In this document: in pieces, positions 1 to 61,897 of the stretch
Position numbering within the stretch: position 1 is the stretch's first letter
How the letters are laid out: the number at the start of each line of letters is the position of its first letter
Sequence record: OK272484.1
Source: Escherichia phage JLBYU22
DNA: 64,000 nucleotides
Strand: one strand, 5' to 3'
Notes under the pieces: model-generated
Seen by the model: the letters and a program-made list of their open reading frames with translations, nothing else
Told to the model about the DNA's origin: nothing
Databases searched by the model: none
Made by a program: the position numbers and the translations under genes

Positions 1-1176
1 TACGGTAAAGACCCAATCGCTTCCGATGCTAAAGAAGCATTCCACCCAATGTATGGTCCAGATGCAATGTTCTCTGGTCAGGGTGCTGCTAAGAAATTCC
101 CAGCTCTGGCTGCTAGCACACAAACTACAGTAGGTGATATCTATACTCACTTCTTCCAGGAAACTGGTACTGTATATCTGCAAGCTTCTGTTCAAGTAAC
201 AATCGATGCTGGCGCGACTGATGCTGCTAAATTAGATGCTGAAATTAAGAAACAAATGGAAGCTGGTGCACTGGTAGAAATCGCTGAAGGTATGGCTACT
301 TCTATCGCTGAACTCCAGGAAGGTTTCAATGGTTCTACCGATAACCCATGGAATGAAATGGGCTTCCGTATCGATAAACAAGTTATCGAAGCTAAATCTC
401 GTCAGCTGAAAGCTGCTTACTCTATCGAATTAGCACAAGACCTCCGTGCTGTTCACGGTATGGATGCTGATGCTGAACTGTCTGGCATTCTGGCTACAGA
501 AATTATGCTGGAAATCAACCGTGAAGTTGTTGATTGGATTAACTACTCAGCTCAGGTTGGTAAATCTGGTATGACCCTGACTCCGGGTTCTAAAGCTGGT
601 GTATTTGACTTCCAGGACCCAATCGATATTCGTGGTGCTCGCTGGGCGGGTGAATCCTTTAAAGCTCTGTTGTTCCAGATTGACAAAGAAGCAGTTGAAA
701 TTGCTCGTCAGACCGGTCGTGGTGAAGGTAACTTCATTATCGCTTCCCGTAACGTAGTTAACGTTCTGGCTTCAGTTGATACTGGCATTTCTTATGCTGC
801 GCAAGGTCTGGCTACCGGCTTTAACACTGATGCTACCAAGTCAGTATTTGCTGGTGTTCTGGGTGGTAAATACCGTGTATATATCGACCAGTATGCTAAA
901 CAGGATTATTTCACTGTAGGTTATAAAGGTCCGAACGAAATGGATGCTGGTATTTACTACGCTCCATATGTAGCTCTAACTCCGCTGCGTGGTTCCGATC
1001 CGAAGAACTTCCAACCAGTAATGGGATTCAAAACTCGTTACGGTATCGGTATCAACCCATTTGCAGAATCCGCTGCTCAGGCTCCGGCTTCTCGCATCCA
1101 GAGCGGTATGCCTTCTATTCTGAATAGCCTTGGTAAAAACGCTTACTTCCGCCGTGTATATGTTAAAGGTATCTAA
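1..1176 (+). CDS. 23: Major capsid protein gp23, C-terminal portion (gene starts upstream of window)
   Basis: Frame is open from base 1 into ORF 49..1176; T4-type gp23 sequence; followed by hairpin terminator. Confidence 0.9.
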   Translation, partial: YGKDPIASDAKEAFHPMYGPDAMFSGQGAAKKFPALAASTQTTVGDIYTHFFQETGTVYLQASVQVTIDAGATDAAKLDAEIKKQMEAGALVEIAEGMATSIAELQEGFNGSTDNPWNEMGFRIDKQVIEAKSRQLKAAYSIELAQDLRAVHGMDADAELSGILATEIMLEINREVVDWINYSAQVGKSGMTLTPGSKAGVFDFQDPIDIRGARWAGESFKALLFQIDKEAVEIARQTGRGEGNFIIASRNVVNVLASVDTGISYAAQGLATGFNTDATKSVFAGVLGGKYRVYIDQYAKQDYFTVGYKGPNEMDAGIYYAPYVALTPLRGSDPKNFQPVMGFKTRYGIGINPFAESAAQAPASRIQSGMPSILNSLGKNAYFRRVYVKGI

Positions 1177-57435: not shown

Positions 57436-58071
57436 TCACAGTTCAGATGCTACAGTGATTACAGCTTCAATGTTTTCTGCCGAGCGTTTAATGTCAAGAT
57501 ACACATTACCGTTTTTAGCGATTTTACAAGACATTCCGATATCAGTAAATTTCTGAATATGATGTTCCATCATTTTGTATCCAAAAATTCGCATGTTTCC
57601 ATTGTTGTTAATTTCAAAATTGCGAATTCCGTGAGTGCGTTTTTCTAAAATAGCAAGATAATTACTACGATAAGTTTCAACCTTTTTAAGAACAAATCCA
57701 TTTTCATCTAAAAGTTTTAACATGAGATCTTTATCTTCTTCCATATCGGAAGTAATCTCGCGAGCTTTACGAGTAGCACGTTTTTTCAGAAGTTCTGGAG
57801 CATTTTCCTGCGCATATAAAGTTGCTGCGTTTGAAATAATATCTTGCGCTTCGCCTGTGATGATTAATCCATCACCTGATTTCTCTACCAGGCCTTTTTT
57901 AATCAATACCCCAATATTACTATTAACTACTGCGTTACCTAAATCTGGATGCACCTCACGAACTTCTGCAGCTGTAATGAAATCTTTCTTAGCAATGGTA
58001 ATTAAAATCGCAGCAGTTTTTTCATTCAGAACATCGTTAGAAGCTTTGATGATGTAAGTTACTTTAGACAT
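57436..58071 (-). CDS. motA: Middle transcription activator MotA
   Basis: 211 aa, same as T4 MotA. Confidence 0.92.
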   Translation of the reverse strand: MSKVTYIIKASNDVLNEKTAAILITIAKKDFITAAEVREVHPDLGNAVVNSNIGVLIKKGLVEKSGDGLIITGEAQDIISNAATLYAQENAPELLKKRATRKAREITSDMEEDKDLMLKLLDENGFVLKKVETYRSNYLAILEKRTHGIRNFEINNNGNMRIFGYKMMEHHIQKFTDIGMSCKIAKNGNVYLDIKRSAENIEAVITVASEL

Positions 58072-58104
58072 TTTCTAATCTCCGTAATTCTGTATCAGTA
58101 GTTG

Positions 58105-58170
58105 ATAGTTGTATAGTACCACAGTATGCTTTGGTTGTAAACCGTTTTGTGAAAAAAATTTTTGAAATAA
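58105..58170 (-). promoter_or_regulatory. Early promoter cassette (family 2) for motA with UP element
   Basis: Minus strand ttttttatttcaaaaatttttttcacaaaacgGTTTACA, 17-nt spacer, TACTATacaactatcaactactg. Confidence 0.55.
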
Positions 58171-58174
58171 AAAA

Positions 58175-58194
58175 GGGAGAGCCTCGGCTCTCCC
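58175..58194 (-). terminator. Rho-independent terminator immediately upstream of the motA promoter
   Basis: GGGAGAGCC-TC-GGCTCTCCC hairpin followed by T-tract on minus strand. Confidence 0.7.
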
Positions 58195-58199
58195 TAAAA

Positions 58200-58349
58200 T
58201 TACTGCATGACTGTGATAACTGTCATGATAACACGTTGAATTCCGAACGCAAGAAGACCTCCTGCTACGGCTGGAACAACACCTAAACCCGCCAGTAAAA
58301 TGCTACCGGATACTAATGCAGCGCTTGTAATACCTATAAATGGACTCAT
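58200..58349 (-). CDS. Small hydrophobic membrane peptide (49 aa), coupled to gene 52
   Basis: MSPFIGITSAALVSGSILLAGLGVVPAVAGGLLAFGIQ...; ATG overlaps gene 52 stop; not in ORF track. Confidence 0.5.
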   Translation of the reverse strand: MSPFIGITSAALVSGSILLAGLGVVPAVAGGLLAFGIQRVIMTVITVMQ

Positions 58350-59674
58350 TTGATTTCCTCTAAATCTTTAGTGTATTCGGTAACTACATCAGTAGTTTTC
58401 CAATATTCGTTTTCTTCTTTCTTAGCTTTAGCTTCTTCAGCAAGTTTCTTTGCTTCGTCGGAAGTCATATGAAAAATATTCATACCAACTAGTTTATCAA
58501 CATAAGAAGAATACATATCAATTTTAGAAAGTTCTTCTGTCAGTTCTTTACGAGTTTTACCTTGTACAACAATTTCACCTGAAATTACTTTCTTAATGAA
58601 ATGTGCCTTGGCAAAGGCTAAACGAAATGCTGATTCAGTTTCTTTGATTTTGTTATCAATTCGTTTCTGGACATAAGTTTTACGAACTTCAACGAAGTCT
58701 TTGATTAAATCAACTACGTTATCGTAAACTTGCAGCTTTCCTTTCTCATTAATAACGGTAATATTCTGGGAACGACGCTCAATCAACCCGAAGTCTTTCA
58801 TAATTTTCGCGTGACGTTCTTCTTCGTTATCGCTCAAAGAATATTCTTTACGGAATTTAACTTTGAAGCCAAAACCATGCTCACCGCAAGCATCATCCCA
58901 CGTAATGAATCCTTTATCTTCAAGCGGGTCTAAGATTTTACTCACATAAGTTTCACGATCATACTTATACGGAATCTCAGTGATATTCATTTGAGTTCGT
59001 GAAGTAAACTTGTACGTTCCACGAATTTCATATTGACCGTCAATTTCAACGACTTCACCGCGAAATTCTGGGAATTCTACCTTAGGTTTAGTTACTTTCT
59101 TTCCTTGAAGAGCTTGCAGTACAGCTTTCTTGACAGAAGAAACGCTATGAGGAAGAATGTAAGTTGCATAACCAGTTGCAATACCGGAAACACCATTAAG
59201 AAGAACAGTAGGAATAATAGGCAAATAGAAAGCAGGCGGAATGTGTTCTTTATCTTGATGTACCGGAGCATATTCAGTATCTTTATATACGTTATAGAAA
59301 TTTTTACTTACACGAGCAAAAATATAACGACTTGCCGCTGCTTTTTGGACAGTACGAGAACCAAAGTTTCCTTGACCATCTAACAAAGGAAAGTTATTAT
59401 TCCAAGTGTTAGCCATCAAAGCACCTGCGTCTTGTGCAGAGTTTTCACCATGATGATATCCAAGGTCTGCTACACCACCTGCAATAGAAGCGAGTTTGTG
59501 AAACTTATCTTTATTTCCTCGTGCCAAATCAAGAGCTCGAGCAATAACAAATCGTTGAACTGGCTTAAATCCATCAATCATATTTGGAATGGCACGATTT
59601 TCAACCGTGTACATAGCATAAGCCAATGCTTCATTATCAATGATACTTTTTAAATCGCGATTATTCAGTTGCAT
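58346..59674 (-). CDS. 52: DNA topoisomerase II medium subunit gp52
   Basis: 442 aa, same as T4 gp52. Confidence 0.93.
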   Translation of the reverse strand: MQLNNRDLKSIIDNEALAYAMYTVENRAIPNMIDGFKPVQRFVIARALDLARGNKDKFHKLASIAGGVADLGYHHGENSAQDAGALMANTWNNNFPLLDGQGNFGSRTVQKAAASRYIFARVSKNFYNVYKDTEYAPVHQDKEHIPPAFYLPIIPTVLLNGVSGIATGYATYILPHSVSSVKKAVLQALQGKKVTKPKVEFPEFRGEVVEIDGQYEIRGTYKFTSRTQMNITEIPYKYDRETYVSKILDPLEDKGFITWDDACGEHGFGFKVKFRKEYSLSDNEEERHAKIMKDFGLIERRSQNITVINEKGKLQVYDNVVDLIKDFVEVRKTYVQKRIDNKIKETESAFRLAFAKAHFIKKVISGEIVVQGKTRKELTEELSKIDMYSSYVDKLVGMNIFHMTSDEAKKLAEEAKAKKEENEYWKTTDVVTEYTKDLEEIK

Positions 59675-59678
59675 AAAT

Positions 59679-59819
59679 TTACCATACTAGTGAATGTAGT
59701 GCCATAATAACATCAGAAATGAAAAGCACGACTTGAATTAATCCGAACATTACTCCATAATATAGTGCTACCAATAAAGTAGCAAGGGCTAGTGAATAGC
59801 CCAAGATTTTCTTAATCAT
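59679..59819 (-). CDS. Small hydrophobic membrane peptide (46 aa)
   Basis: MIKKILGYSLALATLLVALYYGVMFGLIQVVLFISDVIMALHSLVW; not in ORF track. Confidence 0.45.
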   Translation of the reverse strand: MIKKILGYSLALATLLVALYYGVMFGLIQVVLFISDVIMALHSLVW

Positions 59820-59970
59820 TAGTAGATAACAACACAAATGTTAAATATGCACACATACCCTGGGCTAAAGCTTGTGAAAACACACTGCTAGCATCGATAC
59901 AGATAGTTAAAACACATGCTACTATCCAACAAATAAATGAAATAACTCCTAATAATTTTGCGATATTCAT
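59812..59970 (-). CDS. ac: Ac-like small membrane protein (52 aa)
   Basis: MNIAKLLGVISFICWIVACVLTICIDASSVFSQALAQGM...; size and position of T4 ac. Confidence 0.55.
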   Translation of the reverse strand: MNIAKLLGVISFICWIVACVLTICIDASSVFSQALAQGMCAYLTFVLLSTND

Positions 59971-59980
59971 AATATTCTCC

Positions 59981-60136
59981 TCAACTATTTTTAGAACCAA
60001 TGTACGCGAATAATGATAAAATCGCTAATACGCCCTGAGCTGATGCTTGCAAAAATACTGAAGTTTCTCCAGTTATTACTGTTCCGATGCATAAAAAGAA
60101 CCAACAGAAAAAGGCTATACCGTGAACAAATTTCAT
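59981..60136 (-). CDS. Ac-like small membrane protein paralogue (51 aa)
   Basis: MKFVHGIAFFCWFFLCIGTVITGETSVFLQASAQGVLAIL...; shares FxCW...C...SVF.QA.AQG pattern with the neighbouring Ac-like ORF. Confidence 0.5.
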   Translation of the reverse strand: MKFVHGIAFFCWFFLCIGTVITGETSVFLQASAQGVLAILSLFAYIGSKNS

Positions 60137-60143
60137 ATTTTCC

Positions 60144-60224
60144 TCACTGGCGTCCGAAGACGCCTTTGGTTTTAAGATTGTTACGATAGAACTGCATCAC
60201 GTGTTCGTTGTGGAAATTACTCAT
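60144..60224 (-). CDS. stp: Stp peptide (26 aa), host-defence modulator associated with PrrC anticodon nuclease
   Basis: Translation [26 protein letters not shown] matches T4 Stp as recalled; ATG overlaps ndd stop. Confidence 0.8.
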
Positions 60225-60682
60225 TAATATGCCTGCAAAACGAATTTAAAGTTATCAGCCAACATACGGTTCATTTCTTCAAGTGTTTGATACTCAGAAT
60301 GATGATTACGAGTAAACGCCAAAGCTAACTGACCTTTACCAAATCCTGTCGTCAGAGGTTTCATCTTAGAAGCAGGTAAATAAAATACTGTGTATGGAAC
60401 ATTGTTATTTGCAATAGTACGTGCAAGCTGAGACCGACGTTGACGAATATGACTTAGAACTGCACTGAATCCTTGCTTAGAACGCTGATTACCTACATAA
60501 AATCGTGCTGACACACATGGATTACTAAATAGACGACCATCTAATTTACTTACTAAAAAGTAAAATCCAGGTTTAGATAAAATATCTTTATGCGGAGTTC
60601 CCAAAAACCACTCGCCACCCTTGATTGTACCAATAACAGTAGCGCCTGCGTTGTTCAGATCAGTAACAGTCATGTATTTCAT
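60224..60682 (-). CDS. ndd: Nucleoid disruption protein Ndd
   Basis: 152 aa from MKYMTVTDL; T4 Ndd about 151 aa; track ORF over-extended. Confidence 0.8.
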
Positions 60683-60740
60683 ATTAATTTCCTCTAAATT
60701 ATTTTCTACTCCAAGGCCGCATGAATACGCGGCCATTAAA

Positions 60741-60956
60741 TTAATCGTCGCAGTCGACGCTCAATTCCCAAAACTCTTCTACTGTATAAGTTTCAGTATC
60801 ATTTTCAATACAGAAACGTTCATTACTGTTATTTGCTAAAGTAGCATTAACTGTCATTTTCTCGCTGGTGCTCTTAAGAGGCGAAATACGAATTAACTGA
60901 TCACCATTATCTAAACAGAAAATTTCACCAACTTTTACATCTTTAAAAATTTTCAT
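60741..60956 (-). CDS. Hypothetical protein (position of ndd.1)
   Basis: 71-aa ORF. Confidence 0.5.
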
Positions 60957-60964
60957 AATTCACC

Positions 60965-61072
60965 TCAAGGAGTATAAAATCCAAATGCAGTTGTTGACCA
61001 TCCCATCCAATATGGGAAATTTGCGCCAATGTAAAACATGAGAATATAAAACCAAATGCTTAGTAAATTCAT
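60965..61072 (-). CDS. Small hydrophobic peptide (35 aa)
   Basis: MNLLSIWFYILMFYIGANFPYWMGWSTTAFGFYTP; coupled to upstream ORF. Confidence 0.35.
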   Translation of the reverse strand: MNLLSIWFYILMFYIGANFPYWMGWSTTAFGFYTP

Positions 61073-61269
61073 TATTTTACACCATTCCAAATTGTTTCAA
61101 CTACAGATTTTAAGCCATTTTGATGAATGTCCATTCCGACAACTGCCATCAAATAGATTCCAACTACAACTGAACCTAAGGCAAAAATCAGCATGAAAAT
61201 GAATAAAGCCGGAAAAATATTATCGAAAAACCATTCAATAAATGTAAAAGCACTACGTTTACGCTTCAT
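61072..61269 (-). CDS. Small membrane protein (65 aa from MKRKRSAF)
   Basis: Hydrophobic helix IFPALFIFMLIFALGSVVVGIYLMAVVG; GAGG Shine-Dalgarno before ATG at 61269. Confidence 0.5.
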   Translation of the reverse strand: MKRKRSAFTFIEWFFDNIFPALFIFMLIFALGSVVVGIYLMAVVGMDIHQNGLKSVVETIWNGVK

Positions 61270-61276
61270 ATTTTCC

Positions 61277-61390
61277 TCACATAAATCCAAAGTAAGCGTT
61301 TAATACATCAATCATTAAAACGATTGGGAATATACTCAAAACTATTAGTATTATAACTACATTCCATATAGCTTTAACAATCTTTTTCAT
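61277..61390 (-). CDS. Small membrane peptide (37 aa)
   Basis: MKKIVKAIWNVVIILIVLSIFPIVLMIDVL...; GGAGG Shine-Dalgarno; early promoter directly upstream. Confidence 0.5.
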   Translation of the reverse strand: MKKIVKAIWNVVIILIVLSIFPIVLMIDVLNAYFGFM

Positions 61391-61410
61391 TTTCTGTTCC
61401 TCCGTAGTTG

Positions 61411-61455
61411 ATAGGGTAATAATACCACAGAGGAACAGTCTTGTAAACAACTTTT
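61411..61455 (-). promoter_or_regulatory. Early promoter cassette (family 2)
   Basis: GTTTAC -35, 18-nt spacer, TATTAT -10, leader ...CTATCAACTACGG. Confidence 0.5.
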
Positions 61456-61554
61456 TTAAAAATATTCGTAATAAATGTGAATACCAACTACTACTGCTGA
61501 AACTTGCGCAACCCACCATGCACAAGCAATAAGTACAGAATTCAAAATTTTCAT
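61456..61554 (-). CDS. Small hydrophobic peptide (32 aa)
   Basis: MKILNSVLIACAWWVAQVSAVVVGIHIYYEYF; not in ORF track. Confidence 0.35.
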   Translation of the reverse strand: MKILNSVLIACAWWVAQVSAVVVGIHIYYEYF

Positions 61555-61633
61555 AATAACCTCATCACAAAAGTAAATGTTAAACAAATTAATGGAATAC
61601 TAATTAACCAAACGAAACACCACCATAGTGAAC

Positions 61634-61897
61634 TCATAACTCAATCTCAGCGATTTTCATTTCATTACTATTAATAGCCGCTTTAAGACTATCTGAAAGA
61701 ATTACATTCCAGTGGTCATTCATATGACCATTGACTAAGCGTGTAATTTCTTCGGGAGTTGAAAAATAAGGCGTATCAGACTCCCAATGCGATAGTCCCA
61801 AGCGAGTATAAATCATACCTTCATCATCGCTAGAATATTCAACTGACACAAACTCATCAGTTATTTTATGTTTAGCGTAATAAAATTTAAATTTCAT
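61634..61897 (-). CDS. Hypothetical protein
   Basis: 87-aa ORF. Confidence 0.5.
   Translation of the reverse strand: MKFKFYYAKHKITDEFVSVEYSSDDEGMIYTRLGLSHWESDTPYFSTPEEITRLVNGHMNDHWNVILSDSLKAAINSNEMKIAEIEL

Follow-up and report, generated by a model that had tools for sequence, protein, structure and literature searches.

Tandem Ac-family genes in the T4-type ndd-to-motA.1 operon of Escherichia phage JLBYU22

The closest described relative of the two paralogous small membrane peptides considered here is Ac, the acridine sensitivity protein of phage T4. According to a 2025 preprint (bioRxiv 10.1101/2025.06.30.662393), T4 plates on acriflavine when ac is deleted or mutated, the G38R substitution abolishes Ac function and renders the phage acriflavine-resistant, and expression of Ac by itself raises the sensitivity of E. 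coli to the dye by about 3 logs. Spontaneous acriflavine-resistant mutants of T4 arise there at about 2e-4 (2.4e6 of about 1e10 PFU). The preprint also reports that Ac expression is not toxic when the dye is omitted (CFU of 1.5e9 versus 2.3-4.3e9) and that Ac-expressing cells are hypersensitive to ampicillin, which its authors read as lost efflux. A block of AcrAB-TolC by Ac is put forward there as a hypothesis, and is repeated as an assumption in PMC13250531. An ESMFold model in the preprint presents T4 Ac as a hairpin in which the helices join at D26-A27.

The E. coli peptide AcrZ (49 aa, bound to AcrB) provides a second point of comparison, since both AcrZ and Ac are inner-membrane peptides of about 50 residues that are known or proposed to modulate AcrAB-TolC. 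The PDB includes structures of AcrBZ, according to PMC7267776. The analogy is functional only. AcrZ is a single bent transmembrane helix, whereas Ac has two predicted helices split by a polar turn; AcrZ enhances the export of some substrates, whereas Ac would inhibit export; and AcrZ binds AcrB, whereas binding of Ac to AcrB is only hypothesised in the preprint. A search of the PDB with our Ac profile returned no chain at E <= 10, and a Foldseek comparison of a model of one of the Ac-family proteins described below (acB) with the PDB gave 0 matches.

The T4-type transcription unit and its two Ac-family genes

The window analysed here is a stretch of 64,000 nt of Escherichia phage JLBYU22 (OK272484.1). 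Over positions 58100-60800 it shares 99.6% identity with Shigella phage A2, and 96-98% with dozens of further Tequatroviruses. This region is a standard T4-type operon of Tequatrovirus, ndd-stp-ac-52.1-52-motA.1, except that it contains tandem Ac-family genes, which we designate acA and acB (Table 1). All genes of the block lie on the minus strand and are transcribed from ndd towards motA.1, that is, in descending window coordinates. The three back-to-back ORFs of 46, 52 and 51 aa listed in the initial annotation are present on this strand as 52.1, acA and acB, and so is the 49-aa hydrophobic peptide that it placed next to gene 52, encoded by motA.1, the ATG of which overlaps the gene 52 stop codon by 4 nt (ATGA). 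The record for phage Aplg8 has a terminator annotated at the position equivalent to the one that closes the unit in the window.

Table 1. Features of the ndd-to-motA.1 region in the window, and small ORFs occupying the stp slot in other records (coordinates of the respective locus)
Feature	Sequence	Position	Strand	Description
motA	window	57436..58071	-	transcription activator
intrinsic terminator	window	58174..58195	-	9-bp stem with 6 GC pairs and T-run; closes the ndd-stp-ac-52.1-52-motA.1 unit
motA.1	window	58200..58349	-	49 aa, Gly/Ala/Val-rich, hydrophobic
gene 52	window	58346..59674	-	DNA topoisomerase II medium subunit, 442 aa; context
52.1	window	59679..59819	-	46-aa membrane peptide, ATG start
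acA	window	59812..59970	-	52 aa; T4 ac orthologue (Ac, acridine sensitivity)
acA Shine-Dalgarno GAGGAG	window	59977..59982	-	overlaps acB TGA stop; read from sequence
acB	window	59981..60136	-	51 aa; second Ac-family gene, TGETSV-turn type
acB Shine-Dalgarno GAGG	window	60142..60145	-	overlaps stp TGA stop
stp	window	60144..60224	-	26 aa; activator of host PrrC anticodon nuclease / type IC restriction inhibitor
GGCGUC-UUCG-GACGCC hairpin	window	60149..60164	-	C(UUCG)G tetraloop; formed by last stp codons, immediately 5' of acB Shine-Dalgarno
ndd	window	from 60224	-	nucleoid disruption protein
small ORF in stp slot	KP179 (L006)	555..710		
small ORF in stp slot	Shark (L007)	537..710		
small ORF in stp slot	UPEC01 (L024)	529..687		
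small ORF in stp slot	DCP80 (L026)	431..592		
small ORF in stp slot	L027	720..902		

Both Ac-family genes are preceded by a Shine-Dalgarno (SD) sequence of the GAGG type, located 5-6 nt from the ATG and overlapping the TGA of the preceding gene. The SD of acA sits in a 16-nt junction (AGTTGAGGAGAATATT) that is similar to the junction between stp and acB (CAGTGAGGAAAAT), and the 25 nt upstream of acB are the same as the 25 nt upstream of T4 ac. Translation of 52.1 appears to be coupled to that of acA, because 52.1 lacks an SD of its own and its start shares 8 nt with the end of acA. The hairpin formed by the end of stp has an MFE of -12.2 kcal/mol and is kept in T4 and RB51 upstream of the one ac gene that each of them has. 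A role of the hairpin in mRNA stability, or in adjusting how the peptide gene that follows is translated, is possible.

The annotated T4 record shows the same gene order, motA.1, 52, 52.1, ac, stp, and comparison with this record identifies all but one of the small proteins. Stp is identical to T4 Stp, MotA.1 is identical to its T4 counterpart at 49/49 positions (phrog_3487, E = 2e-31), and gp52.1 at 45/46 (phrog_3595), with a match to Pfam DUF7396 (PF24129) at positions 1-46 of 46 (81.9 bits, gathering cut-off 27, E = 3.5e-23). The 49-aa and 46-aa peptides of the window are these T4 proteins, with no notable difference. The acA product corresponds to T4 Ac (51 aa) with an additional Thr three codons ahead of the stop, so that 51/52 residues match; this Thr-insertion variant is common and is reported to be still acriflavine-sensitive in phage PP01 (bioRxiv 10.1101/2025.06.30.662393). 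No counterpart of acB is present in T4 or T2. One of the ORFs had initially been equated with T4 ac, and this applies to the middle ORF, acA, which is the orthologue, but not to the stp-proximal ORF, acB. The peptide set as a whole is not novel: the presence of the identical set in T4 had been named beforehand as the observation that would mark it as conserved, and T4 has three of the four peptides, acB alone being extra. Kinship of 52.1 or MotA.1 with Ac was rejected, their alignment scores being equal to the shuffle mean, and the two are unrelated to each other as well; they are conserved T4 membrane peptides, co-translated in the same operon. The T4 record remarks that the 52.1 ORF was formerly mis-identified as ac.

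Family membership, predicted structure and the two Ac types

In BLASTP the acA and acB proteins align with 17/40 identities (43%, E = 6e-10). Their Smith-Waterman score is 85, compared with 24 +/- 4.9 in composition-matched shuffles, and since 0/20,000 shuffles reach 85, hydrophobic composition is not the cause of the likeness. These results bear out the proposal of the initial annotation that the two ORFs are paralogues with a shared core, which reads F-x-C-W-x3-C ... SVF-x-QA-x-AQG. Both proteins match phrog_2501 over their full length (acA, E = 3.7e-25; acB, E = 4.9e-26). Precomputed annotations record the Pfam family PF26944 (Phage_T4_Ac) on the acB-type proteins P0004 and P0007 and on P0009, a protein considered below; a local Pfam-A scan of acA and acB gave no Ac-family match, and the family assignment rests on PHROGs and on the profile built in this analysis. 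Alignments of 11 and 14 sequences covering five lineages define six family-invariant residues (W15, T22, V30, Q33, Q37 and G38 in T4 Ac numbering), all of which are kept in acA and in acB, so that acB retains the Gly equivalent to the position of the inactivating G38R substitution. The length of 47-52 aa, the predicted architecture (a hydrophobic helix joined by a short polar turn to a second helix) and the genomic slot between ndd/stp and 52.1/gene 52 are likewise common to the family and to both copies in the window. We regard acB as almost certainly a genuine, expressed Ac-family gene.

The family itself is small and restricted to Tevenvirinae. An exhaustive profile search of 1.84 billion representative proteins recovered only some six clusters of Ac proteins, with no bacterial protein that could credibly be called a relative, and lends no support to a host-derived origin of Ac; two weak partial matches, to proteins of 2254 and 859 aa, were taken as chance.

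Each Ac copy is predicted to form a two-helix hairpin of about 51 aa. The AF2 model of acB (mean pLDDT 76, from a shallow alignment of 9 sequences) consists of a helix at residues 2-22, a turn at 23-26 (G-E-T-S) and a helix at 27-50, an architecture that agrees with the published ESMFold hairpin of T4 Ac. Helix 1 is strongly hydrophobic and contains the invariant Trp, the four-residue polar turn has one acidic residue, and helix 2 is less hydrophobic and carries the invariant V-x-x-Q-x-x-x-Q-G face. Hydrophobicity clearly marks helix 1 as membrane-spanning (in its best 15- to 17-residue segments the summed Hessa dG is -2.5 to -3.4 kcal/mol), and helix 2 only marginally so (+1.6 to +4 kcal/mol), for which reason it is possible that helix 2 is interfacial instead of membrane-spanning. 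The basic residues at the N terminus of Ac and the single acidic residue in the turn fit a hairpin with both termini inside, and from these we infer an N-in/C-in topology. The shared core had been described as lying within a single transmembrane helix, but both the hydrophobicity analysis and the AF2 model divide it: F-x-C-W belongs to helix 1, and SVF..AQG extends over the turn and helix 2.

Two types of Ac protein can be distinguished by the turn, which reads ...T-G-E-T-S-V-F... in the acB type and ...I-D-A-S-S-V-F... in the T4 type. T4 Ac and acB share the family profile, length, predicted hairpin, invariant residues (W, T, V, Q, QG) and the slot between stp and 52.1, but are only 35-43% identical and differ in having the IDASSV and TGETSV turns, respectively. 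A single Ac gene, of the acB type, is present in the Tequatroviruses RB51, RB68, RB33 and BECP11, in Gaprivervirus UPEC01 and DCP80, in Mosigvirus phi25-307, in F2 (filed as Tequatrovirus in its record) and in Jiaodavirus KP179 and Shark. The T4 (IDASSV) type was found in Tequatrovirus only, on a long branch shared with P0009, a metagenomic single-copy intermediate in which the turn is TGES but helix 2 is of the acA-like CAYLTF kind. Since RB51, RB33, Gaprivervirus, Mosigvirus and Jiaodavirus have no Ac of any other type, the acB type looks to be the canonical or ancestral form, and T4 Ac looks like a derived branch restricted to Tequatrovirus. The homologue survey in the preprint, which took in BLASTN matches of 93-100% identity only (bioRxiv 10.1101/2025.06.30.662393), therefore missed the more widespread acB type.

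The acB protein is 76% identical to that of RB51 ac, 70% to that of RB33 and 45-51% to the Mosigvirus and Jiaodavirus proteins. The single-copy ac genes of RB51/RB68/RB33, Gaprivervirus, Mosigvirus and Jiaodavirus have the same TGETSV turn and the same SD context after stp as acB. They differ at the 3' end: single-copy acB-type ac overlaps the start of 52.1 and ends ...KND*, whereas acB of the window ends ...KNS* and is followed by the second SD and acA.

Distribution and history of the acB cassette

At a threshold of at least 80% identity, the acA type (T4 Ac) is present in 459 phage records and acB in 52, including 39 in which the acB protein is 100% identical and a further 8 in which identity is at least 98%. 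The full 469-bp two-copy arrangement is covered in 50/735 records, a 556-bp query is covered to at least 80% in 50/544, and the intermediate protein P0009 matches two places in 48. Both copies occur in about 48-50 records, or ~50 of the ~540 Tequatrovirus records; expressed per acA-carrying Tequatrovirus, two copies are found in roughly 9-10%, and acB is missing from ~90%. Two-copy phages include Aplg8, ECML-134, PST, Sf22, pSs-1, slur07 and Bas41 of the BASEL collection. In several records two 'acridine resistance protein' annotations are present. The tandem layout has been deposited too often with an identical or near-identical acB to count as novel: the polymorphism in gene content is genuine but unremarkable, has been annotated before, and concerns a described family in its usual slot. 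Our search of the literature found no paper on the tandem arrangement, on the acB type as the canonical form or on a cassette system. The IMG/VR collection yielded 7 confirmed loci, too few for population analysis, and annotated GenBank loci were used instead.

A three-way DNA alignment shows the order SD-acB-SD-acA-52.1 in the window, SD-acA-52.1 in T4 and SD-acB-type-52.1 in RB51. The boundaries of the cassettes fall in short repeated SD/stop motifs, GAGGA(A/G)AAT..ATGAA and AAT(A/G)(G/A)TT(G/A)A. The ac locus behaves as a cassette system, with acA alone, acB alone or both.

Annotation of the two-copy loci is inconsistent. Many GenBank records name only one of the two ac genes, and sometimes the wrong one. 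In the loci of Yersinia phage PST (L021, 1888..2043) and SHBML-50-1 (L019, 1890..2045) it is acB that is named 'ac' or 'acridine resistance', with acA unannotated, and the two-copy records of JK1, HMD-9 and slur07 have no feature over acB.

The summed pairwise differences in acA comprise 71 synonymous and 7 non-synonymous changes (pN/pS ~0.03), and acA is under strong purifying selection. This excess of synonymous changes is one of several observations against taking the short ORFs for untranslated frames that happen to be open in AT-rich intergenic DNA, a reading for which only their small size speaks. The ORFs are conserved across hundreds of phages and several genera, they are tightly packed with SDs or overlapping start and stop codons, and T4 ac was defined genetically and by plasmid expression; the probability of chance frames is negligible, and for acA the reading is effectively refuted. 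The acB type evolves faster than acA, with pairwise dN/dS of 0.33-0.67 in small samples of acB-type genes, but the ratio is below 1 in both. One could regard acB as a redundant, drifting copy without a separate role in these phages, produced neutrally by recombination in a hyperplastic region and heading to loss. The higher dN/dS is in keeping with this, as is the absence of acB from most acA-carrying Tequatroviruses. A further point in its favour comes from Tequatrovirus BCH953P4 (OZ035784.1 / OZ035789.1, ~70943..71094), in which acB is recovered in two tblastn pieces from a locus of 465 rather than 469 bp, suggesting that acB is frameshifted or pseudogenised there, or that the record contains a sequencing error. 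The absence from ~90% of acA phages and the apparent BCH953P4 frameshift imply that acB is dispensable and could be partly redundant. We nevertheless consider neutral drift towards loss unlikely. In all ten of the two-copy loci examined the acB ORF is intact and has a strong SD, the six family-invariant residues are kept, the protein is identical in the 39 records counted above, and the type itself must be functional because it serves as the sole Ac in four other lineages or genera.

Diversity within the two-copy phages bears on how the arrangement arose. Among nine such phages, segregating sites number 2/156 in acB, 6/159 in acA, 8/141 in 52.1, 4/81 in stp and 60/459 in ndd. The low diversity of acB, together with the existence of the single-copy intermediate allele P0009, hints, on small numbers, that the acB cassette reflects recent recombinational spread or the stacking of diverged alleles rather than an old retained duplicate. 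An ancient duplication in situ followed by reciprocal losses is the alternative origin; on these small numbers the evidence leans to stacking or recent spread.

Possible function of the Ac peptides and other small ORFs of the interval

A role of these peptides in host membrane transport, raised in the initial annotation, fits the published data on T4 Ac, namely acridine sensitisation and the proposed block of AcrAB-TolC; for the superinfection-related role raised alongside it we found no evidence. A holin-like role was rejected, the genes being outside any lysis cassette and Ac expression not being toxic. In the mechanism suggested by the T4 literature, Ac would be made early in infection, insert into the inner membrane and raise the intracellular acridine level, most likely by binding and inhibiting a component of export in the host inner membrane, for which AcrB of AcrAB-TolC is the candidate of the preprint. 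We hold the assignment of AcrB as the target only tentatively. Since acB keeps the invariant face and the architecture, and is the type found as the sole Ac of several genera, it would most likely have the same biochemical activity, being either redundant with acA or tuned to another variant of the host target, and from its sequence acB probably sensitises cells to acridines as T4 Ac does. Taken as a whole, the account that we favour, with reasonable though not strong confidence, is one of tandem Ac cassettes encoding hairpin peptides, in which acB is likely to be Ac-like and inhibition of export is the likeliest mode of action.

The sensitisation could also be explained if Ac peptides self-oligomerise through the Q-x3-QG face and thereby form a small channel, or perturb the membrane, such that cationic dyes are admitted, as in Silver's increased-permeability model; oligomers made of one paralogue or of both would then be conceivable. 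Polar Gln/Gly faces often mediate helix packing, and helix 2 of the hairpin has a conserved polar i/i+4 Gln pair and a Gly. Early uptake studies, as summarised in the preprint (bioRxiv 10.1101/2025.06.30.662393), also point in this direction. However, Ac expressed without dye leaves CFU unreduced, which argues against a general leak, and the ampicillin hypersensitivity was read by the preprint authors as lost efflux. The permeability model is disfavoured by the lack of toxicity of Ac, and we consider it improbable compared with inhibition of export. Less probable still, and offered as speculation, is a split of the Ac family into two specificities, in which the TGETSV type would be ancestral and T4 Ac would have been retargeted to another inner-membrane protein or pump allele. 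If this were true, phages with two cassettes would disable efflux or transport in a broader range of Escherichia, Shigella and Yersinia hosts, ac of T4, although the textbook example, would be an atypical member of its family, and comparison of the two types might reveal the natural, non-acridine role of Ac. A PNAS 2026 paper contains no acriflavine data on two-copy BASEL phages such as Bas41.

The practical value of these observations is small. Three points are worth keeping, namely the apparently ancestral standing of the acB type, the uneven annotation of the locus and a possible difference in counter-selection in two-copy phages: the ac locus serves as an acriflavine counter-selection marker in T4 genetics, and in phages with two copies a single knockout may not give resistance. 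If Ac peptides do inhibit AcrAB-TolC, then acA, acB and the Mosigvirus and Jiaodavirus types would form a comparative series for mapping the interaction surface.

Other small ORFs are found in the same part of the genome. The slot between ndd and ac that is occupied by stp in T4 contains different ORFs of ~51-60 aa in Jiaodavirus, Gaprivervirus and a metagenomic T4-like contig (Table 1). None of the five listed matches the Ac profile, and hydrophobic products are encoded by the three that were translated, from KP179, Shark and the metagenomic contig L027. The interval from ndd to gene 52 gives the impression of a hot spot at which small membrane peptides can be exchanged. In the two-copy phage 101117BS1 an extra 57-aa ORF (L022, 2127..2300) lies between stp and ndd, in ~165 bp that are absent from the window, a further indel polymorphism of this block. 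The ndd frame of the window (60224..60736, minus strand) extends over 170 codons when read from an ATG further upstream, and use of the T4-type start (MKYMTV...) at 60682 would give 152 aa; the length of ndd differs by record, being 513 bp in Aplg8 and RB33 and 456-459 bp in T4 and A2. Upstream of ndd, at 60741..61640 on the minus strand, is a run of very short hydrophobic ORFs that corresponds to ndd.1-ndd.6 of T4, part of one T4 cluster of predicted small membrane proteins.
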